A stretch of DNA of 55,875 nucleotides from Nanobdellota archaeon. Its GTDB lineage: Archaea > Nanobdellota > Nanobdellia > Woesearchaeales > GW2011-AR4. This document shows, in pieces, positions 3,997-55,046 of the stretch (the first letter of the stretch is position 1; each line of letters starts with the position of its first letter). Made by a program: the position numbers and the translations under genes. Under the pieces are notes generated by a model. It saw only the letters and a program-made list of their open reading frames with translations, was not told the origin of the DNA and searched no databases. The stretch covers positions 1 through 55,875 of the forward strand of contig JBBSWH010000002.1 in assembly GCA_038046385.1 (NCBI GenBank), in the 5' to 3' direction.

Positions 3997-5535
3997 ATGA
4001 TACTAGTATTAAATTTCGGAGGCCAATATTGCCACCTTATCGCAAGAAGGGTAAGGGATTTAGGAGTTTATTCTGAGATAGTCCCTTGCGACATTCCTTT
4101 AAGAGAGATAGGGAGATTAAAGCCTGACGGAATAATACTTTCCGGTGGCCCATCGAGTGTTTACGAGCACAATGCTCCGATGATGGACAAAAAGATTCTT
4201 GAGTTAGGAATTCCAATATTAGGCATATGCTACGGCCAGCAGCTAATAGGCAAATATGTCAACGGAGAAGTTATCGGCAATAAATTAAAAGAATTTGGAA
4301 AAAAAGAGCTTCGTGTAAAAAAGAACGGAAAGCTGCTGAAAGGGCTGTCAAAAAAAGAAACTGTGTGGATGAGCCACGGCGATTTGGTTGCAAAGCTTCC
4401 AAAGGATTTTGAAGTGCTTGCATCAACAGATACATGCACAATAGCCTCATTTGAAAACAACCAAAGAAAACTTTATGGAATCCAGTTCCATGCAGAGGTT
4501 ATCCATACTCCGAAAGGAAATGAAATTTTCAAAAACTTTTTATTTGATATTTGCAAAGCAAAAAAAGACTGGCACATAAAGAGCCTTGCAAACAAGATTG
4601 TAAAGGAAATAAAAAAAGAAGTCGGAAGCAATTCTGTCATAATGGGTGTTTCGGGCGGAGTTGACAGTACTGTAGCCGCTACTTTGCTGCATAATGCAAT
4701 CGGCAATAAGCTTTACTGTGTTTTTGTTGATCATGGATTAATAAGAAAGAATGAAGCAGAGGAAGTAAAGGATTTCTTCGAGAAGCGCCATAAGTTCAAG
4801 CATTTCTATGCTATTGATGCTTCAAAAATATTCCTGGAAAGACTAAATGGGATTACGGACCCTGAAGAAAAAAGAAAAATCATAGGGCACACGTTCATAG
4901 AAGTGTTTGACAGCAAAGTGATTGAGCTCGAAAAAAAACATCCTGCAATAAAATTTCTTGGGCAGGGAACAATTTACCCTGACAGGATTGAGAGCGCGCA
5001 GCCTTCAAAGCACGCTTCCAAAATCAAAAGTCATCATAATGTAACGCTTCCAAAAAATATGAAGCTAAAAGTTATTGAGCCATTAAAGGAGTTTTACAAG
5101 GATGAAGTCAGAAAATTGGGAAGAGAGCTAAAAATACCAAATGACCTGTTAGACAGGCATCCGTTCCCTGGACCGGGCCTTGCAATAAGGATTCTTGGCG
5201 AGATAACAGAAGAAAGGCTCAAAATTTTAAGGGAAGCTGATTATATCTTCATCGAAGAGCTTAAGAAATCAAAATTGTATAATGAAACCTGGCAGGCGTT
5301 TGTCGCATTATTCCCGGTAAAATCTGTTGGCGTCAAAGGGGACGCAAGAACTTACGAGTATATTATCTCATTAAGAGCCGTAACAAGCCTTGATGCCATG
5401 ACAGCTGACTGGGCAAGGTTTCCCAATGATTTCCTTGAAAGCGTGTCAAACAGGATTCTTAATGAAGTTGCAGGGGTTAACAGGGTTGTCTATGATATCA
5501 CACAAAAACCACCAGGAACTATAGAATATGAATGA
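3997..5535 (+). CDS. guaA: GMP synthase (fused GATase + ATP-PPase)
   Basis: GICYGQQ, QFHAEV, SGGVDS, HPFPGPGLAIR and KPPGTIEYE motifs. Confidence 0.97.
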   Translation: MILVLNFGGQYCHLIARRVRDLGVYSEIVPCDIPLREIGRLKPDGIILSGGPSSVYEHNAPMMDKKILELGIPILGICYGQQLIGKYVNGEVIGNKLKEFGKKELRVKKNGKLLKGLSKKETVWMSHGDLVAKLPKDFEVLASTDTCTIASFENNQRKLYGIQFHAEVIHTPKGNEIFKNFLFDICKAKKDWHIKSLANKIVKEIKKEVGSNSVIMGVSGGVDSTVAATLLHNAIGNKLYCVFVDHGLIRKNEAEEVKDFFEKRHKFKHFYAIDASKIFLERLNGITDPEEKRKIIGHTFIEVFDSKVIELEKKHPAIKFLGQGTIYPDRIESAQPSKHASKIKSHHNVTLPKNMKLKVIEPLKEFYKDEVRKLGRELKIPNDLLDRHPFPGPGLAIRILGEITEERLKILREADYIFIEELKKSKLYNETWQAFVALFPVKSVGVKGDARTYEYIISLRAVTSLDAMTADWARFPNDFLESVSNRILNEVAGVNRVVYDITQKPPGTIEYE

Positions 5536-5544
5536 TTATAGTGT

Positions 5545-5598
5545 CGGTTTTTGTGGGACGCCAAAAATCTTTGATTTTTGAGCGTATCACAAAAACCG
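5545..5598. repeat. Nested hairpin CGGTTTTTGTG..CAAAAATC-TTT-GATTTTTG..CACAAAAACCG
   Basis: 11-bp outer and 8-bp inner perfect inverted repeats. Confidence 0.8.
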
Positions 5599-5622
5599 CC
5601 TGCAACGATAGAATACGAGTGA
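5584..5622 (+). pseudogene. Stranded duplicate of the guaA 3' end (VSQKPPATIEYE*)
   Basis: Translates to the GuaA C-terminus with mostly synonymous differences from 5497-5535. Confidence 0.8.
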
Positions 5623-47558: not shown

Positions 47559-49426
47559 AGGTCGCCCCTCCTCTTGATGTAGATAAATTCTGTAACCATC
47601 AGCAAAAATGCAAGGAGCATTAGCGGAAGCTCAAGGTTAAAATCGTGCTGCTTGCTTTCCCTGTCAAGCAAAAGTTCCCCGCTGTCCTTTGATCCTGATT
47701 TTAGCACAGAAGCAACATCAGATTCTTTTTCATCTATAAGGTTTGCTGCATGCTTCTTTCCGTCGTACTCGTATATTCCTGCTTCATCCATTATCAGCTT
47801 GGATGTTGTAACTGTTGATGACGGTGTTGTCACTTTCTGTTCACCTATAGTGTAAAGTTTTCCTGTCTTGAAATTAAAATCTTTTATGTCTTCTGTCTTT
47901 ACCATGAAGTTTATCATTGTTATCCAGAATATTGGGTAAGAAGGAAGCGTCTTGAAGTCGCTGGCCTGGTCCATTATGCCGTAATACGCGACTCTTCCGC
48001 CCTTTTTCTCGCCGTAGACTATCAGCGGCGTCTTGTCATCAGCAGAAGCAAATGTTATCGCCCCTTTTTTTGCCTCTCCGGAGAAATATGAAGCTGCTGT
48101 TGTGAAGCATCTTTCTTTTTCAAAATATTTTGTTACCTGGTTGATGGTTTCGACGCATACCTTTGTCGGCTTGTTGACTTTATTTTTAAGTTCGAATATG
48201 GAAAGGCTTTTTGTGTCAATTTCCTTGGAATCTTCCTGAACTGCAAGTATAAGGTTGCCTCCTTTCTCCACATAATCGGATATGTCATCAAAAGTTCCCG
48301 GCACAATGCCGTCTCTCTTGTTGACGTTGTTGATATTGTAGACTATTATAAGGTCATGCTTGTAAGGGTCTATCTTTTCCTTCTTTGTATTTACTGTAAG
48401 CACAGGCGGATTAACCACATTGAGCTCGACATCCTTTGCAGATGCAAGCGCAAACTCAAGATTGCTTGATTTTTCATTTGTGATGAGCAAAACAGATGTT
48501 TTTATTTTTGGGGGAGTTGCAATGTATGCAGTGTCGTCAACTAAAAAGTCGTCTTTAGGCTCAAGCTCAACTTTTGAAACCCCTGCCGGAGTGTCAAATA
48601 TGAAATTTTCAACAGAATGCGGCGCAATTGTAACTTTTATCTGCGTAATCACTTTATTGTCCTTGATAAGTTTTATTGTAGTTTCCCTTGCCTCATTGTT
48701 GAAGTTTTTTACATAGGCTTTTGTATTGTATTTTGTGACTTCAAGTTTGATTATGCCTGTATTTTTTGCATTGTTGGACACATCAATAAAATCCACAAGC
48801 TTCTCTTCTGAAGAGAGCATTGCCTTAACAACACTAACATCCGGCCCTTCTGTTGAGATAAAATCGCTGAATACTACAATTCTTCCGGGCCTTTCTCCGA
48901 GTATGTCTTTTGCGAGAAGCAGGGAATCTCCAAGATTCGTTGTTGTGGCTTTTGGCTTTACTTTTGAAAGCACATCAAGCGCAACATCGGTATTTTCATT
49001 TTCAAGAACTATAAGAGGAATGTTTTCTGCAAGTATTATTGTGTTTTTTCCGCTTAAAGCGCCTTTAGCCCCTTCAAGAGCCCTGTCAAACCTTGAAGCC
49101 CCTTTTTCTTTTGCCTGCATAGAAGCGCTTACATCTAATATTATGACTGTGTTCTCAAGTGTTGTGTCATATTTCAGTTTTACATACGGAGCAGCTGCAA
49201 CAAGCGCAAGCCCAAGTATTATCAAAAGCTGCATTAAGAAGAGGAGATTTGTCATCAGCTTCTGGAAAAAGAAGAACTGCTTTGATTTCTTGTTATCCTG
49301 CATGATAAACATCAATGAAGGTATTATTTTATCCTGCGGCTTCGGCCTCCTTAAATAAAGTATCAGGAATATCAGTGCTGCTATCAGCGCCCATAATCCT
49401 AACGGCCTTTGGAACGGAAGATTCAT
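47555..49426 (-). CDS. BatA-domain/vWA membrane protein
   Basis: PLGLWAL..LYLRRPKP..IPSLMF BatA N-terminus, DVSASM MIDAS, C-terminal TM. Confidence 0.9.
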   Translation of the reverse strand: MNLPFQRPLGLWALIAALIFLILYLRRPKPQDKIIPSLMFIMQDNKKSKQFFFFQKLMTNLLFLMQLLIILGLALVAAAPYVKLKYDTTLENTVIILDVSASMQAKEKGASRFDRALEGAKGALSGKNTIILAENIPLIVLENENTDVALDVLSKVKPKATTTNLGDSLLLAKDILGERPGRIVVFSDFISTEGPDVSVVKAMLSSEEKLVDFIDVSNNAKNTGIIKLEVTKYNTKAYVKNFNNEARETTIKLIKDNKVITQIKVTIAPHSVENFIFDTPAGVSKVELEPKDDFLVDDTAYIATPPKIKTSVLLITNEKSSNLEFALASAKDVELNVVNPPVLTVNTKKEKIDPYKHDLIIVYNINNVNKRDGIVPGTFDDISDYVEKGGNLILAVQEDSKEIDTKSLSIFELKNKVNKPTKVCVETINQVTKYFEKERCFTTAASYFSGEAKKGAITFASADDKTPLIVYGEKKGGRVAYYGIMDQASDFKTLPSYPIFWITMINFMVKTEDIKDFNFKTGKLYTIGEQKVTTPSSTVTTSKLIMDEAGIYEYDGKKHAANLIDEKESDVASVLKSGSKDSGELLLDRESKQHDFNLELPLMLLAFLLMVTEFIYIKRRGDL

Positions 49427-49629
49427 TTGGATTTCCTCTTTTTGTTTAATATTAAAGACATCAGGTCTTTCGGATTCAAAACGTCTTTTACAAGAACAAG
49501 CACATCCCCTATGCTGTACCAGTATGCGTCAGAGCCTTCGCTGACTTTAATGCCGTCTCTTGCCTCTTTCGGCAGGGTCAGCTGCCCGGTGCTCGTCAGC
49601 TTTGATTTGCCTATGAATCTTGCTTCCAT
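49423..49629 (-). CDS. AbrB/MazE-family DNA-binding protein leading the vWA operon
   Basis: SKLTSTGQLTLPKEAR..EG; ATGA overlap with the next gene. Confidence 0.85.
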   Translation of the reverse strand: MEARFIGKSKLTSTGQLTLPKEARDGIKVSEGSDAYWYSIGDVLVLVKDVLNPKDLMSLILNKKRKSK

Positions 49630-49759
49630 TTATTAATTTTAATAATATTAATAGTTTTTGTTGATTTTGTATAATTATTAAAATTAATATTTATAAGCTT
49701 TGCGGTTTTGGCTGCTTTATTCAATAAAATATATAAATAAACGGCAAATAATCAGCCTT

Positions 49760-51712
49760 ATGCCAACAATAAAGGTAACTTTGCCGGACGGAAGCGTGCA
49801 CGAGCATCCAAGAGGGATTACTGCAGGGGAAATTGCGCTGAAAATAGGAAAAAGGCTTGCAGAAGATGCTGTCGCTGCAAAAGTAAACGGGGAATTAAAA
49901 GACCTTGACAGCCATATAAATGAAGACGCTGCATTGCAGATTATTACATTAAAGAACAGCGAAGGGCTTGATTGTCTGCGCCACAGCATAGCGCATCTTC
50001 TTGCAGCGGCAGTTATGGAAATGTGGCCCGACACCAAAAGAACAATCGGGCCGCCTATAGAGAACGGGTTCTATTATGATTTTGAGTTCACCCATAAGAT
50101 TTCAGAAGAAGACTTGCCAAAGATAGAGGCAAAGATGCGCGAGATTCTTCCGGCATGGGATAAATTTGAGAGATCAGAACATAGTTCAGCAGACGCAAAA
50201 AAAGAATTCCATGACAACAAATTCAAGCTTGAGCTTATTGATGAATTTTCCAGCGAGGGAAAAAAACTGACATTCTACAAGTCAGGAAATTATGTTGATT
50301 TATGCAAAGGCGGCCATTTGCCGAGCATGAAAAAAGTAAAGCCAGACGCATTCAAGCTGACAAATATTGCTGGAGCCTACTGGAGAGGAAGCGAAAAAAA
50401 CACAATGCTTACCAGAATTTATGCAGTTGCATTCCCGACAAAAAAAGAGCTTGATGATTACCTAAAACAGCAGGAAGAAGCTGAGAAAAGGGACCATAAA
50501 AAGATTGGAAGAGAATTGGGATTGTTCATGTCGCACGAGCTTGTAGGAAAAGGACTCCCAATCTGGCTTCCAAAAGGCGAGATAATAAAGAGAGAAATAG
50601 AAAATTTTGCAATCAACACAGAAAGAAAAGCCGGCTATCAGCGTGTTTCAACCCCGATGCTGGCAAAAAAAGAGCTGTTCATCAAATCCGGCCATCTGCC
50701 TTATTACAAGGAATCGATGTTTCCTGAAATGAAGCTTGACGACGGAGATTATGTGCTGAAGGCAATGAACTGCCCGCACCACCATTTAATTTACAGCCAC
50801 AAGTCAAGAAGCTACCGCGATTTGCCATTAAGAATTTCAGAGTACGGAATCTGCCACCGTTATGAATTATCAGGCACTTTGGCAGGATTGCTAAGAGTAA
50901 GAATGCTGACAATGAATGATGCGCACATTTACTGCAGGAAAGAGCAGATAGAAGAAGAGTTTGAAAGGGTAATAAAGCTGGTAGTGAATCATTACAAAGT
51001 TTTTGGATTGGAAGATTATTATTTTAGATTATCTCTTCACGACCCTGAAAACAAAGAAAAATACATTGACGAGCCTGAAAACTGGAAATTTTCAGAAAAT
51101 GCCTTAAGAGATGTTTTGAAAAAGATGAATGTGAAGTTTGTTGAGGCAAAAGATGAAGCTGCCTTCTACGGCCCAAAAGTAGATATACAATATAGGGCAG
51201 TTACCGGAAGAGAAGAGTCAATGTCCACCATTCAGCTTGATTTTGCGGCAAAAAAAAGATTTGGATTAAAATATGCTGACAAGGACAATACTGAAAACAA
51301 TGAAGTTTACGTAATACACCGGGCTCCATTGTCAACGCACGAAAGATTCATGGCATTCTTGATTGAGCATTATGCAGGAAAGTTCCCGTTGTGGCTTGCG
51401 CCGGTTCAGGTGCGGATATTGACAGTGGCTGACAGGTTTGAACCTTATGCAAATAAAATAAAAGATGCTCTTGATGAACATGATGTAAGGGTTGAAGTTG
51501 ATGCAAGAACTGAGAGCATCGGCTACAAAGTAAGGGAAGCGCAGGCTGAGAAGATTCCGTTAATTGTAACTGTTGGTGAAAAAGAAGAATATTCTGAAAC
51601 AGTTGCAATAAGAACAATGGATAATCTTGTTAAGTTTAATGTCAAGATAGAAGAGTTTGTACAGAAAGTTCTAAGCAACATTAAAGAAAAGAAAATTAAG
51701 GTTGAGTTGTGA
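49760..51712 (+). CDS. thrS: Threonine-tRNA ligase (bacterial-type, TGS + editing domain)
   Basis: RHSIAH, DLCKGGH, RDHKKIG, KAMNCP, HRYE, AFYGPK, TIQLDF, HRA, ERF motifs. Confidence 0.97.
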   Translation: MPTIKVTLPDGSVHEHPRGITAGEIALKIGKRLAEDAVAAKVNGELKDLDSHINEDAALQIITLKNSEGLDCLRHSIAHLLAAAVMEMWPDTKRTIGPPIENGFYYDFEFTHKISEEDLPKIEAKMREILPAWDKFERSEHSSADAKKEFHDNKFKLELIDEFSSEGKKLTFYKSGNYVDLCKGGHLPSMKKVKPDAFKLTNIAGAYWRGSEKNTMLTRIYAVAFPTKKELDDYLKQQEEAEKRDHKKIGRELGLFMSHELVGKGLPIWLPKGEIIKREIENFAINTERKAGYQRVSTPMLAKKELFIKSGHLPYYKESMFPEMKLDDGDYVLKAMNCPHHHLIYSHKSRSYRDLPLRISEYGICHRYELSGTLAGLLRVRMLTMNDAHIYCRKEQIEEEFERVIKLVVNHYKVFGLEDYYFRLSLHDPENKEKYIDEPENWKFSENALRDVLKKMNVKFVEAKDEAAFYGPKVDIQYRAVTGREESMSTIQLDFAAKKRFGLKYADKDNTENNEVYVIHRAPLSTHERFMAFLIEHYAGKFPLWLAPVQVRILTVADRFEPYANKIKDALDEHDVRVEVDARTESIGYKVREAQAEKIPLIVTVGEKEEYSETVAIRTMDNLVKFNVKIEEFVQKVLSNIKEKKIKVEL

Positions 51713-52001
51713 TTGGCTGAAGGGGCGGGCTGGTTTGCTCAAGAAGGTATTCAAACATCCTTGTTCTTAGTCCTAATTGTGGGTATGGTCTGGCGAGTTC
51801 ATCACGCAGGATTGTGGCAGTGCCCAAGAGAGACATCAATAAAGACGTTCCGGGAGTGAGCAACTCTTTTTCCATTCGTATAAGTTCCACTAGATTGCCC
51901 ATTTCTGCACAAGCTATGAAGTGGTTTCCCTGCTGAATCCAGGGTTTAACATCTGATTCATACTTTTGTTTCCATGCTTCAACTAGCTCTTGGATTTCCA
52001 T
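51696..52001 (-). CDS. Hypothetical cargo protein between thrS 3'-end copies 1 and 2
   Basis: 101-aa ORF, Lys-poor, TATA-like TTTATAA about 25 bp upstream. Confidence 0.65.
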   Translation of the reverse strand: MEIQELVEAWKQKYESDVKPWIQQGNHFIACAEMGNLVELIRMEKELLTPGTSLLMSLLGTATILRDELARPYPQLGLRTRMFEYLLEQTSPPLQPITTQP

Positions 52002-52035
52002 ACCTATCAGAAAGCCGCACCAAGTTATAAATATT

Positions 52036-52068
52036 ATTAAAGAAAAGAAGATTAAGGTTGAGTTGTAA
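52036..52068 (+). pseudogene. Stranded thrS 3' end, copy 2 (IKEKKIKVEL*)
   Basis: 31/33 nt identical to 51680-51712; both changes silent. Confidence 0.9.
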
Positions 52069-52069
52069 G

Positions 52070-52735
52070 CTATTTTGTCAGCTTACATGTTAAGGTTTGT
52101 ATATTTAGTCCTGCAACTTCACATTCTCCTTGAGAAAGATCAATTCCATTTAATCTTAATCTGCCAACAATCTCTATCAATTCATAAAAAGTTAATGAAG
52201 ATTTAATAGAATCAGCCATTGTCACGACATCTATTGTTCCCGCTTCTTCCATCATTTGGAGCGCACTTAATTGACCCATACTTGTGTCTCTAGAAAAATC
52301 ATAGATTAATACCCTACCTTTTTGATTTGTAACTCTTAGCAGTTCTCCAATCGCTTTTTGAGGATCTTCAAAATGATGAAGGGAAGCCCAGCATATTACT
52401 GCATCATAAAAACTATCAGGCTCTTGCAAATCGTAAACATCGCCAACCCTATAACTCAAGTTTGGAAGTCCTCCATTCATTTTTTGAGCCATATCTATTG
52501 CCATTGCGTCCTTATCAATTCCCACTACTGTTGATGCCGGGCATTCTCGAGCAATCATTCTTGTTAAGGATCCTGGGCCGCAAGGAACATCCAAAATAGT
52601 GTTAGCTCCTCTCAAATGTATTCTTTTATCCACGTCTTCAAAACGAGTTCTGTGGTAGTCCGCATCAAACCTAGCAGCATGTATTAGATATTTATAAGTG
52701 TTTGAATGCGGTTCAAGTATTCTTTCTATTGTCAT
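52070..52735 (-). CDS. Class I SAM-dependent methyltransferase (cargo)
   Basis: ILDVPCGPG, GID, YDAVICWASLHHF. Confidence 0.88.
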   Translation of the reverse strand: MTIERILEPHSNTYKYLIHAARFDADYHRTRFEDVDKRIHLRGANTILDVPCGPGSLTRMIARECPASTVVGIDKDAMAIDMAQKMNGGLPNLSYRVGDVYDLQEPDSFYDAVICWASLHHFEDPQKAIGELLRVTNQKGRVLIYDFSRDTSMGQLSALQMMEEAGTIDVVTMADSIKSSLTFYELIEIVGRLRLNGIDLSQGECEVAGLNIQTLTCKLTK

Positions 52736-52794
52736 ACGATAGAAAAAAGGTACATATAATATAAATGTTTTCTTTGTAACTACTTAAAAGTTAT

Positions 52795-52829
52795 AATATT
52801 AAAAATAAAAAATAAAAGTGGAACTCTAA
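52795..52829 (+). pseudogene. Stranded thrS 3' end, copy 3 (NIKNK-KIKVEL*, one A lost)
   Basis: AAT ATT AAA AAT AA- AAA ATA AAA GTG GAA CTC TAA encodes the ThrS C-terminus with different codons. Confidence 0.65.
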
Positions 52830-55046
52830 TTATTCCACTGCAACAGCGCCACTGCTTCCTGAGCTTGCAACTGCAACCTCTTCTGAGCCCTTTGTCAGAT
52901 AAGGCATAGGGTAAGGATACTCTTGCGGTTTCTCGTAAGGCAATTTAACCGTGCTTATCTCCTTGACATCATCAAGATTGTTTGCCTTTATCTTTCCAAG
53001 CGAGACTGTGTAAAGCGTGTTGTCCATAAACAAGCTTCTTCTCACAGAATTTGGCGAGCCGTACCAGTACCAGTCCTGCTGCTCGTCGCCTTCATTATGA
53101 GTTATCTTGCCTCTTACTTCGAATCCGTTATCATTCAAAGTAAAGACATAAGCGCCCTGCCATAGTTTTTGCCTGTAATAGCCAAGCCTGCTGTCGTAAG
53201 TCGGCTTGCCCTTGACTTCGCTCACAGGTATGACGAGCAGATTCTTTTCCTTGTTGAACAAAAATGCCTTGTGGTCGTTCAGTGCTTCTGATTCTGTGCC
53301 TGCCTCTCCGATCACATAAGTGTCAACCGGTTTTGGATTTGCGACATCTGAAACGTCAAACAAAGCTAATTTCAATCCTTTTGTGGATATTCCGCCCCAT
53401 TCATTTGAATCGGTTTCTTTTCCTATTCCGATTATATGAGTTTCATCATAAGGATGCAGATAATCAGAGTACCCTGGTATCTTTAGCTCTCCAAGAACTT
53501 CCGGGTTCGATGGGTTTGACAAATCGATTACGAACAACGGGTCGATTCTCTTGAATGTCACCATGTAAAGCCTGTCTCCTATAAATCTTGTTGAATATAT
53601 TCTTTCATCCGGTGCAATTGCCTCAAGCTTCCCGATTGTTTCCATTCCGCCATTAAGCACAAACACATTGTTGTACAGCACAGATTTTTGCGCCCATATC
53701 TCGAATGTTGTTGCAACCCTTAAATTTCCGTCATTTTCGTCCATTGAAAACTGGTTAAGCAGATATCCCGGAACTTCTCCCTTTGCGCCGTATTCAATGT
53801 TTCCGTTGTCTATTCCTATTTTATGTATGACTGTTTTTCTCATATCAACCTGAAGCTTGATTTCATATTCCTCTGTAGCCTTTTCTATTTGGCCTATCAA
53901 ATCCTTCTTCGCCTCTTCATCCATTTGATTGTACATATCTTCCATTGCAGATGAAATTTCATCCCATTTCTCCTGCGGATTTAGTGAAGCATCATTCTTT
54001 GCATCATTTATCTTGCTTCTGACATCAGAAGGCAGCAATGGAACAACAACCTCGTAAAAGCGGTCTTCATCATGCGATTGCCAATATCTATAAGGCGGGT
54101 TTTTCTGGTATGCAATGTATATGTTTTTCTCCGAAACATACAGCGTTCCTGTGTAACCCATCATGAATGTTTTTGCATTGACTTTTTCATTGTCGTCAAA
54201 AATATTAAAAGATGCAACTGTGTTAAAATTGTAGTTTTCTTCCGGGTTGTCAAAGTAATAAACATCCGACCTTGCAACAATCTTTGATGATTCTCTTATC
54301 ATCGGCAAAACTATCGGCCCGCCGTAATAAAAATTCTTTGTTGAGACAAAATAAACATAATCCCCTATCATTCTTGATTCATAATAATAGCCGTCGATTT
54401 CATAGTCTTTTACGGCCTTTGGGTTCTTCCTGTCGCTTATGTCATAAACATAAACGTGCGTTGTTGGCTCATAGCTTGGCCTTGGCACAAAATCATACTG
54501 ATAGATTTTTAGGCTTTCGTCGTTGTCATCTGAAAATATTATTAATCTGTCCTTGTTGACAAGCATGTTTCTTGGATTCCCTTCAAGCTTTGTTTCTGAA
54601 ACAATCTTTGCTTTTTCTGCAGGATATACATCTGTAATGACAAGTTTGTTTTGTGTTATGACATAGATATGCTTGCCGTCATTCTTTACAAAATCTGCTT
54701 CATCAACACCTTCGACTTGTACATTTGTTGATGAATAATCTGATGAGGATTCTCCTGAGCCTGCTGATACAGATGAGTCTGCACTTGCTTTCATCATCGG
54801 AGCAGCAGATTCAGCCATCATTGTGCGTATTCCTCCGCTTCCCCCATAATACTGCCTTGTTCCTGACTCAACAGCGCCCTGCTTAAGGTAAGTTTCAATT
54901 TCTTCTGCAGATGAAAATTTCTTTAATTGCTGTGAAGTTTGTGATTGAGATTCATAAGGCAAGGTATTGCCGCATGATGCTATAAATATGCTAAGCACCA
55001 ATAATGTAAAAACCATAATTAATTTGTTTGATGTAGTTGTTTTCAT
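52830..55046 (-). CDS. Secreted beta-propeller domain protein (probable lipoprotein)
   Basis: IASC lipobox; YSSTNVQVEGVDEADFVKNDG, LLNQFSMDE, ERIYSTRF, DPLFVIDLS, GELKIPGYSDYLHP. Confidence 0.9.
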   Translation of the reverse strand: MKTTTSNKLIMVFTLLVLSIFIASCGNTLPYESQSQTSQQLKKFSSAEEIETYLKQGAVESGTRQYYGGSGGIRTMMAESAAPMMKASADSSVSAGSGESSSDYSSTNVQVEGVDEADFVKNDGKHIYVITQNKLVITDVYPAEKAKIVSETKLEGNPRNMLVNKDRLIIFSDDNDESLKIYQYDFVPRPSYEPTTHVYVYDISDRKNPKAVKDYEIDGYYYESRMIGDYVYFVSTKNFYYGGPIVLPMIRESSKIVARSDVYYFDNPEENYNFNTVASFNIFDDNEKVNAKTFMMGYTGTLYVSEKNIYIAYQKNPPYRYWQSHDEDRFYEVVVPLLPSDVRSKINDAKNDASLNPQEKWDEISSAMEDMYNQMDEEAKKDLIGQIEKATEEYEIKLQVDMRKTVIHKIGIDNGNIEYGAKGEVPGYLLNQFSMDENDGNLRVATTFEIWAQKSVLYNNVFVLNGGMETIGKLEAIAPDERIYSTRFIGDRLYMVTFKRIDPLFVIDLSNPSNPEVLGELKIPGYSDYLHPYDETHIIGIGKETDSNEWGGISTKGLKLALFDVSDVANPKPVDTYVIGEAGTESEALNDHKAFLFNKEKNLLVIPVSEVKGKPTYDSRLGYYRQKLWQGAYVFTLNDNGFEVRGKITHNEGDEQQDWYWYGSPNSVRRSLFMDNTLYTVSLGKIKANNLDDVKEISTVKLPYEKPQEYPYPMPYLTKGSEEVAVASSGSSGAVAVE

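Follow-up and report, generated by a model that had tools for sequence, protein, structure and literature searches.

In Vibrio cholerae, the sections of PMC5361080 drawn on here describe type VI secretion system (T6SS) effector-immunity arrays in which the 3' part of a gene gives way to an incoming module and the old piece shifts downstream with its companion; the same sections propose homology-facilitated illegitimate recombination for the sequential displacement arrays of both T6SS and Rhs loci, citing Rhs C-terminal displacement as a like case (PMC5361080). Genomic islands lined up in tandem behind an essential gene of single copy, at its 3' end, are known from the ssrA locus of Dehalococcoides, and the portion of that account used here also mentions accretion of cis-mobilizable elements (PMC3146451). 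Integrons, as far as the consulted part of PMC9668308 goes, have been reported in Archaea and collect single-gene cassettes at one site, the newest nearest the insertion point and the older ones outward. Here we describe an array that recalls all three, located at the 3' end of thrS, the threonyl-tRNA synthetase gene, in a Nanobdellota archaeon (assembly GCA_038046385.1, contig JBBSWH010000002.1). The stretch analysed, hereafter the window, is the entire 55,875-base contig (C2) of a source genome (G000) of 1,283,103 bases that is 85% complete; relatives' genomes carry G-numbers, their thrS loci or contigs L-numbers, and sequencing runs X-numbers. Behind thrS, the gene's own end recurs twice, and each pair of copies is separated by one reverse-strand gene. 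We hold, with moderate confidence, that these copies are scars of repeated replacement of the thrS 3' end by imported DNA, achieved by the cell's own recombination and repair and involving no dedicated integrase.

The thrS gene occupies 49760-51712 on the plus strand and encodes 650 residues from the ATG at 49760 (the mechanically called open reading frame, or ORF, begins upstream, at a TTG at 49700), with TGS, tRNA_SAD, tRNA-synt_2b and HGTP_anticodon domains. Its live C-terminus, IKEKKIKVEL-stop, lies in copy 1 (51666-51712, plus strand; KVLSNIKEKKIKVEL-stop), of which 51680-51712 form a 33-nucleotide (nt) core. The first cargo gene, orf101 (51696-52001, minus strand in the ORF list; 101 residues), overlaps thrS by 17 nt, such that its last five codons and stop are read antisense to the end of that gene. 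Copy 2 is a stranded thrS end and follows at 52022-52068 on the plus strand (33-nt core 52036-52068; E 4.2e-6 against a thrS tail profile), and the TATA-like element of orf101, ATTTATAA, is read on the minus strand at 52025-52032, 24-31 nt upstream of the start. The second cargo gene, a class I S-adenosylmethionine-dependent methyltransferase of 221 residues (52070-52735, minus strand; Methyltransf_25/11/31, PF13649 at E 1.3e-20), has its stop 1 nt past copy 2 and its own TATA-like element, TTTATATTATA, at 52755-52765 on the minus strand, by reading 20-30 nt upstream of the start. Copy 3, probably the oldest stranded end, lies at 52788-52829 on the plus strand (core 52795-52829, extendable to 52788) and carries KIKVEL-stop in frame. 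A 1-nt slip in its A-run puts NIKNKK ahead of KIKVEL-stop; with one A restored there, it reads by eye as NIKNKKIKVEL-stop against NIKEKKIKVEL-stop in thrS. At a distance of 0 nt from copy 3 begins the stop of a 738-residue beta-propeller domain gene (52830-55046, minus strand; PF09826 at E 9e-170), the ancestral convergent neighbour of thrS. Both cassettes are thus very compact, consisting of gene, promoter and end only.

The likeness of copies 1 and 2 is evident from their bases, 31 of 33 being identical. A 33-nt IUPAC pattern that both fit without mismatch has these two matches in the window and none in any of 100 shuffles, and the repeat extends ungapped to 45 nt at 87% identity (51666-51710 against 52022-52066). 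As DNA, copy 3 is marginal: its local score of 15, against a shuffle mean of 10.1, is equalled in 16 of 1000 shuffles and in 3 of 156 natural AT-rich windows, and a DNA profile built from 27 thrS tails misses it. Given this weakness at the DNA level, codon-level tests were used instead. In the six-frame translation of the genome, KIKVEL-stop, and even IKVEL-stop, occurs at three places only (51692, 52048 and 52809), all on the plus strand. Within the KIKVEL codons, copies 1 and 3 differ at six bases, every one of them synonymous, and the probability that six random substitutions in these 18 nt would preserve the peptide is about 5e-6. Since all six differences are silent, copy 3 is the end of another, once-working thrS allele and not a decayed duplicate; the pattern supports divergence under coding selection. 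The degenerate end pattern had no match downstream of thrS, on either strand, in the loci of 28 relatives, and the reverse-strand control at relatives' thrS loci gave none in about 148 kb.

The three-copy arrangement is real. A contig from run X3, whose sample is not the one the genome may have come from, spans 51521-52857 with 0 differences, and contigs from X4 and X7, belonging to two further studies, bridge the junctions of copy 2 (51939-52518), copy 1 (51591-51797) and copy 3 (52687-52842), so that the junctions are unchanged in contigs of runs from three studies. Neither a deletion variant nor an alternative joint appeared in the contigs of four runs, which cannot show rare forms; because the data are contigs, rare excised or empty-site forms may still occur.

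Comparison with relatives indicates what was inserted. Where the site is empty, thrS is directly convergent with the beta-propeller gene, across gaps of 1 nt (G014), 15 nt (G001) and 44 nt (L115). In G000 the place next to the beta-propeller gene is occupied by copy 3 instead of the live end, and hence about 1.1 kb, comprising orf101 and the methyltransferase, has been inserted. Across the relatives, the conserved neighbour of thrS is either the convergent beta-propeller gene or SRP54, and what lies between varies: small membrane proteins, a PCMT methyltransferase, a nucleotidyltransferase pair, BNR-repeat proteins and a toxin-antitoxin-like pair were all found there, with no integrase among them. 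Locus L004/L152 (G008) has AbrB/SpoVT-like and MazF/PemK-like ORFs, identified by reading, inserted between thrS and SRP54. Membrane proteins of about 96-112 residues starting M(D/N)WKE(F/I)... are often convergent to thrS (L040, L089, L155, L185 and L010), and G002 carries such a protein in three tandem copies. An AbrB/MazE-like gene upstream of thrS (49423-49629) is likewise present in many relatives.

The two cargo genes have the look of foreign DNA from separate sources: neither has close relatives in the genus or order, and they are composition outliers in opposite directions. Specifically, orf101 has a guanine-cytosine (GC) content of 0.444, the 98th percentile of genome ORFs, and was not found in 42 genus genomes; a word-based search recovered orf101 alone, viral contigs gave none, a cluster look-up returned no names, and its Atlas structure neighbours are generic helical bundles. 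A full HMMER scan of 1.84 billion representatives returned 8 matches at E <= 0.001, four of them about 100 residues long at 31-39% identity, and a conserved QTKLP lies 3-6 residues from the C-terminus in these relatives and 9 from it in orf101. Judged by these matches, orf101 is a real gene and a member of a family of roughly 100-residue proteins. For the methyltransferase, 300 other genomes of the order offer at best a match of 41% identity over the core only, a word-based search gave none at E <= 1e-10, and GC at third codon positions is 0.252, the 3rd percentile of genome ORFs.

Stranded thrS ends recur elsewhere: of about 48 further thrS loci, all distinct (28, plus 6 new, plus about 14-15 new, from three surveys), 3 have one. 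In G043 the layout is as in G000. A thioredoxin gene (PF00085) on the reverse strand, its stop within the end of thrS, comes after thrS, and past its promoter region stands a stranded end, RILNNIREKKVKVEL-stop (47 nt; tail profile E 5.8e-8), 8 nt short of a gene that directly adjoins thrS in G016. On metagenome contig L087, a four-gene insert of 4.5 kb is followed by a stranded ...EKKIKVEI-stop (tail profile E 9e-4). The third case, G051, contains a hairpin-type element of about 90 nt within the thrS end and a stranded IQEKKIKVEL-stop. This element is shared by G051 (L185) and G020 (L011) and gives thrS a new C-terminus, ...KNRNLQMIF-stop; its motif GATTTTTGAGC occurs 83 times in G000 at no more than one mismatch. 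Other thrS ends of the genus are also altered: in G024 (L021) the C-terminus is truncated or replaced, and in G022 (L023) the frame continues into the antisense of the beta-propeller gene.

At its single syntenic locus, thrS falls into three allele classes within the genus, with 75-81%, 54-60% and 51-53% protein identity to G000. Across the same genus the corresponding ranges are 73-83% for GuaA, 69-78% for a BatA-like neighbour and 66-85% for FtsY. Because GuaA and the BatA-like neighbour vary much less than thrS, the comparison suggests that thrS alleles have been replaced in place. Searches for related ends in wider collections gave little: the exact thrS tail had 0 matches in metagenome contigs and 0 in viral contigs, collections that may lack records near this genome, and a looser pattern hit 84 metagenome and 51 genome stretches, mostly by chance in unrelated taxa, with thrS present in 12 only. 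A candidate thrS with codons of the copy 3 type was rejected, as the sole match with two mismatches in the genus (G050) sits in another frame of an unrelated gene.

The same kind of scar is found behind other genes. We scanned 2463 ORFs of at least 80 residues for their last 9 residues plus stop, at 7 of 9 identities or better, in the next 3 kb, which gave 17 same-strand rows and 0 in the reverse-strand control; 7 matches lay upstream, mostly mirrors of tandem paralogues. Rows at C5:76, C6 and C14 had mirror matches or partners of full length and were discounted as tandem paralogues, and a row at C11 proved to be the real C-terminus of a neighbouring small gene; there (C11:35248-36483) two adjacent real genes share the C-terminal motif PSSLDNLPGMVGGC-stop and no stranded end is present. 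With paralogues removed, and leaving out rows at C8, stranded ends of 35, 23, 39, 95 and 27 nt remain behind five further genes. The first is guaA, in the window itself (live 5501-5535, stranded 5588-5622, both on the plus strand), with a 5:1 ratio of synonymous to non-synonymous codons among those that differ over 35 nt. The signal peptidase II gene lspA (live C1:74594-74616, stranded C1:74261-74283; 23 nt, 4:0) encloses a 73-residue membrane gene, a 118-residue gene (live C3:37295-37333, stranded C3:36590-36628; 39 nt, 5:2) a cation-efflux gene, and a PIN-ATPase-KH gene (live C5:74475-74569, stranded C5:73673-73767; 95 nt, 1 mismatch) a 190-residue gene. In the last case, a 150-residue gene (live C15:13188-13214, stranded C15:13238-13264; 27 nt, 1 mismatch), the copies are separated by a 23-nt insert. 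Exactly one gene is therefore enclosed between the copies in three of the four cases outside the window (lspA, C3 and C5), and the differing codons pooled over guaA, lspA and C3 are 14 synonymous and 3 non-synonymous.

At guaA, the two ends read TQKPPGTIEYE-stop (live) and SQKPPATIEYE-stop (stranded), differ at 6 bases and are separated by a 52-nt insert (5536-5587, plus strand) that contains a short hairpin-type repeat also present elsewhere in the genome. The stranded peptide is that of 12 of 12 genus relatives, and it is the live end that deviates. Within the last 40 residues of GuaA (473-512), G000 has 5 private substitutions and each of 15 relatives has 0-1; the DNA identity of guaA to the genus falls in the last 280 nt (ratios 0.89-0.95). 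Such private substitutions and loss of identity are the expected look of an imported tract longer than the duplicated piece. A different kind of repeat lies near the start of the window, where an exact 30-nt direct repeat (87-116 and 592-621) gives way to weaker similarity that reaches into two start regions on the minus strand. It has the appearance of a promoter and 5' end duplicated to either side of a 128-residue membrane gene, and may be a 5' counterpart of the stranded 3' ends.

These results bear on an earlier note, made from the bases of the window, which had described copy 2 as the thrS end with two changes, copy 3 as a third such end with other codons and one lost A, and the cargo as a 101-residue ORF and a methyltransferase on the minus strand, each with a TATA-like element; every one of these descriptions agrees with what we find. 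Its claim of serial insertion, in which each round brings a foreign thrS end plus one gene and pushes the older end outward, holds in the light of the silent-only divergence of copy 3, the empty sites and the foreign cargo. It had proposed counting stranded ends over all genes and comparing the content downstream of thrS among relatives: the count leaves the five genes named above, and the content varies and is not fixed. On the distinction of copy 3 from shuffled DNA, the answer is divided, being marginal for the bases and clear for the codons.

Homology-facilitated illegitimate recombination joins one homologous anchor to a microhomology joint and so traps foreign DNA beside a conserved gene; it has been shown experimentally in transformable bacteria, where it usually deletes recipient DNA. 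Under the favoured reading, a fragment from a diverged relative would pair with the resident thrS by homology and supply its own last thrS codons together with the donor's downstream DNA, here one convergent gene with its promoter. An illegitimate joint would then attach the far end of the fragment at a point a few dozen bases ahead of the resident stop, which would leave the last 11-16 resident codons stranded past the insert. Two rounds would yield the observed order of thrS, copy 1, orf101, copy 2, methyltransferase, copy 3 and beta-propeller gene, with copy 3 as the native end and copy 1 as the newest. Joints would fall inside the replaced gene's own end because, in such compact packing, that end is the only nearby DNA made dispensable; with the stop of the neighbour lying against that of thrS, hardly any other joint would be harmless. 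The process would differ from its bacterial form in that the joint lies upstream of the end of homology, producing a short duplication, and in that the host is an archaeon. At copy 3, ATTAAA is, by reading, shared at the junction. What the data show directly is the three copies, the inserted state of the 1.1 kb, the foreign composition of its genes, the coding-type divergence of stranded ends, and the recurrence of such ends at thrS in relatives and at other genes of G000; the donor, the anchor, the kind of joint and the succession of events are inferred.

Several observations weigh against this reading. Copy 2 looks hybrid, its 33-nt core resembling copy 1 and its 5' 14 nt resembling copy 3 (9 of these 14 match copy 1, and 13 match copy 3 with one gap, by reading). 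Copies 1 and 2, whose cores are nearly identical, arrived with genes that differ greatly in composition. Copies 2 and 3 and the stranded ends of G043 and L087, four in all, start near codon -16, a clustering not expected of random joints. Where relatives have genes between thrS and its conserved neighbour, a stranded end is mostly absent, and no donor was found. Finally, thrS carries 31 private substitutions against four same-class relatives, evenly spread and without a 3' patch; its relative DNA identity dips weakly in the last third (0.90-0.97), and a mosaic test of the gene gave no clear breakpoint.

The enzymatic apparatus expected of a dedicated insertion system was sought in the genome and at the repeats. 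Matches to PF00589 occur only at C11:46319-46801, C1:473-955 and C1:55098-55586, which places all three tyrosine recombinase genes of G000 outside the window, and PF00239 has no match in the 85%-complete genome; no tyrosine or serine recombinase can therefore be recognised in the window (the search did not extend to transposase families), as the earlier note had also stated for integrases. No recombinase is present in the cargo of L087, L089, L131, L155, L018, L021 or G043. The repeats contain no attC-like hairpin or dyad, the inverted repeats around the copies being AT-rich arms of 72-76% complementarity, and no family of Rfam, which may lack an attC model, matches 51000-53500 at E <= 1.

The comparison with described systems follows from these features. 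Integrons, in the account consulted, resemble the thrS array in gathering single-gene cassettes in order at one site; they require IntI beside attI and hairpin attC sites, and their cassettes are mostly promoterless. At thrS, in contrast, no integrase stands beside the insertion site, no attC hairpins separate the cassettes, the repeat is the end of a coding gene, and each cargo gene is convergent with thrS, with a TATA-like element of its own 20-31 nt upstream of the start (by reading). The ssrA islands, as far as the source used here describes them, are likewise stacked insertions bounded by repeats of a gene's 3' end, and some units lack their own integrase. They are built on a 10-kb scale, sixteen carry a serine-recombinase integration module, and one common 20-bp repeat serves them, whereas the thrS units are single genes of 0.3-0.8 kb without a detectable integrase, and their oldest repeat has diverged at silent sites. 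Direct repeats of the target-gene end do bound the units at thrS, and no integrase was found in any unit. As to a constant core, copies 1 and 2 share 31 of 33 bases, copy 3 shares short stretches only, such as TATTAAA, and four stranded ends begin near codon -16. The thrS array also works like the T6SS and Rhs arrays, which the consulted sections present as ordered arrays made by 3' replacement, with an upstream homology anchor as part of the proposed mechanism and again with no integrase. Like them, thrS combines a foreign live end with an older end kept downstream, and unrelated loci with variable joint positions are found (the five further genes, 23-95 nt). They differ in that a variable toxin gene is what gets replaced there, and what is kept are immunity genes, plainly under selection; in G000, a DPANN archaeon, the anchors are housekeeping genes (thrS, guaA and lspA), the stranded pieces measure only 23-95 nt, and the cargo is unrelated to the anchor. 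Our limited literature search found nothing equivalent on thrS as an integration site or on integrated elements of DPANN, which is no proof of absence.

The earlier note had gone on to interpret the locus as an integron-like platform anchored on thrS. With no integrase nearby, no attC-like hairpin and the same scars behind five other genes, that interpretation probably does not hold. Of the two mechanisms it had offered, homology-facilitated illegitimate recombination fits better, and a trans-acting recombinase specific to thrS fits less well. A general homology-anchored process is favoured over a site particular to thrS because the genes concerned are unrelated, the stranded lengths range from 23 to 95 nt, and the guaA and C15 inserts are tiny.

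A dedicated gene-capture site nonetheless deserves consideration as a possible, if rather doubtful, explanation. Circular single-gene cassettes, each with a promoter and a 33-48-nt mimic of the thrS end, would stack at the end of thrS through a recombinase encoded elsewhere, such as one of two 271-residue Xer-like proteins (a 424-residue integrase-like protein is a further candidate), or through a Campbell-type single crossover over the short shared end, and each integration would leave a hybrid left and a hybrid right copy. The arms of the copies fit attL/attR hybrids of this kind: the arm of copy 1 looks like normal thrS coding sequence, and those of copies 2 and 3 share AAGTTATAA(A)TATT, AAGTTATAA occurring only 35 times in the genome. 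Much of what troubles the replacement reading would also be accommodated, including the matching cores of copies 1 and 2 beside a different core in copy 3, the pairing of those matching cores with cargo of opposite composition, the recurrent start near codon -16, and a thrS without an imported patch upstream of its end. The compactness of the cassettes, the same architecture in G043 and the three tyrosine recombinase genes elsewhere in the genome point the same way, as does KIKVE, which in a post hoc test shows the top synonymous conservation among 332 five-codon windows of thrS classes A and B. Against a capture site stand the lack of a recombinase in the window and in every cargo examined, and repeats that have neither dyad symmetry nor hairpin and match no Rfam family. 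The crossover position it implies also varies, the copy 3 junction at ATTAAA lying, by reading, to the left of the block common to the other pairs. Other genes bear like scars of 23-95 nt, and some of the inserts there, at 23 and 52 nt, are below cassette size. The contigs of four runs, in which rare forms are not visible, showed neither a joint nor a deletion variant, and viral contigs did not yield the thrS tail.

It is very improbable that the copies are target-site or local tandem duplications made at insertion, the outer ones then decaying in place. The near-identity of copies 1 and 2 would suit such an origin, as would the single-base difference in each of the C5 and C15 pairs and the short hairpin repeats within the guaA and G051 inserts. 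Decay in place, however, predicts mostly non-silent change, and the differences seen are 14:3 in favour of synonymous codons at guaA, lspA and C3 and silent in all six instances in copy 3; at guaA, moreover, it is the stranded end that holds the genus consensus peptide and the live end that deviates. The target duplications of known transposases are also, in general, far shorter than 33-95 nt. An assembly artefact or chance likeness in A-rich DNA, which the metagenome-assembled source and the weakness of copy 3 as DNA might bring to mind, can be practically dismissed in view of the independent contigs from runs of three studies with 0 differences at the junctions, the confinement of KIKVEL-stop to these three places in the genome, and the absence of degenerate-pattern matches in the 28 relatives' loci and of reverse-strand matches in about 148 kb.

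Replacement by imported DNA remains our preferred reading, and the kind of process it involves is already known. What is new here is a displacement-type array at the ends of housekeeping genes, in a lineage whose routes of gene acquisition are obscure: DPANN archaea have tiny genomes and, to our knowledge, no known transfer apparatus, and how they gain genes is largely obscure. A bolder proposal, which we put forward tentatively and think unlikely, is that Woesearchaeota-type DPANN practise an integrase-independent form of gene capture, in which conserved genes, and thrS most of all, would offer their last 10-16 codons as portable attachment sites and compact cassettes of end, gene and promoter would circulate between lineages and stack in order of arrival. 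If true, such portable gene-end capture would amount to a functional counterpart of the integron, with the ends of essential genes as its basis. Stranded ends with silent divergence are evidence, both direct and datable, that imported DNA has taken the place of part of an essential gene, and they also show new genes trapped beside it. The three deeply different allele classes at one locus, with variable genes behind them, mark thrS as a hot spot. The signature itself, in which the last codons of a gene recur downstream as a short copy that differs mostly at synonymous positions and abuts the ancestral neighbour, can be searched for in any genome, and may thereby yield per-gene rates of recombination with diverged relatives.

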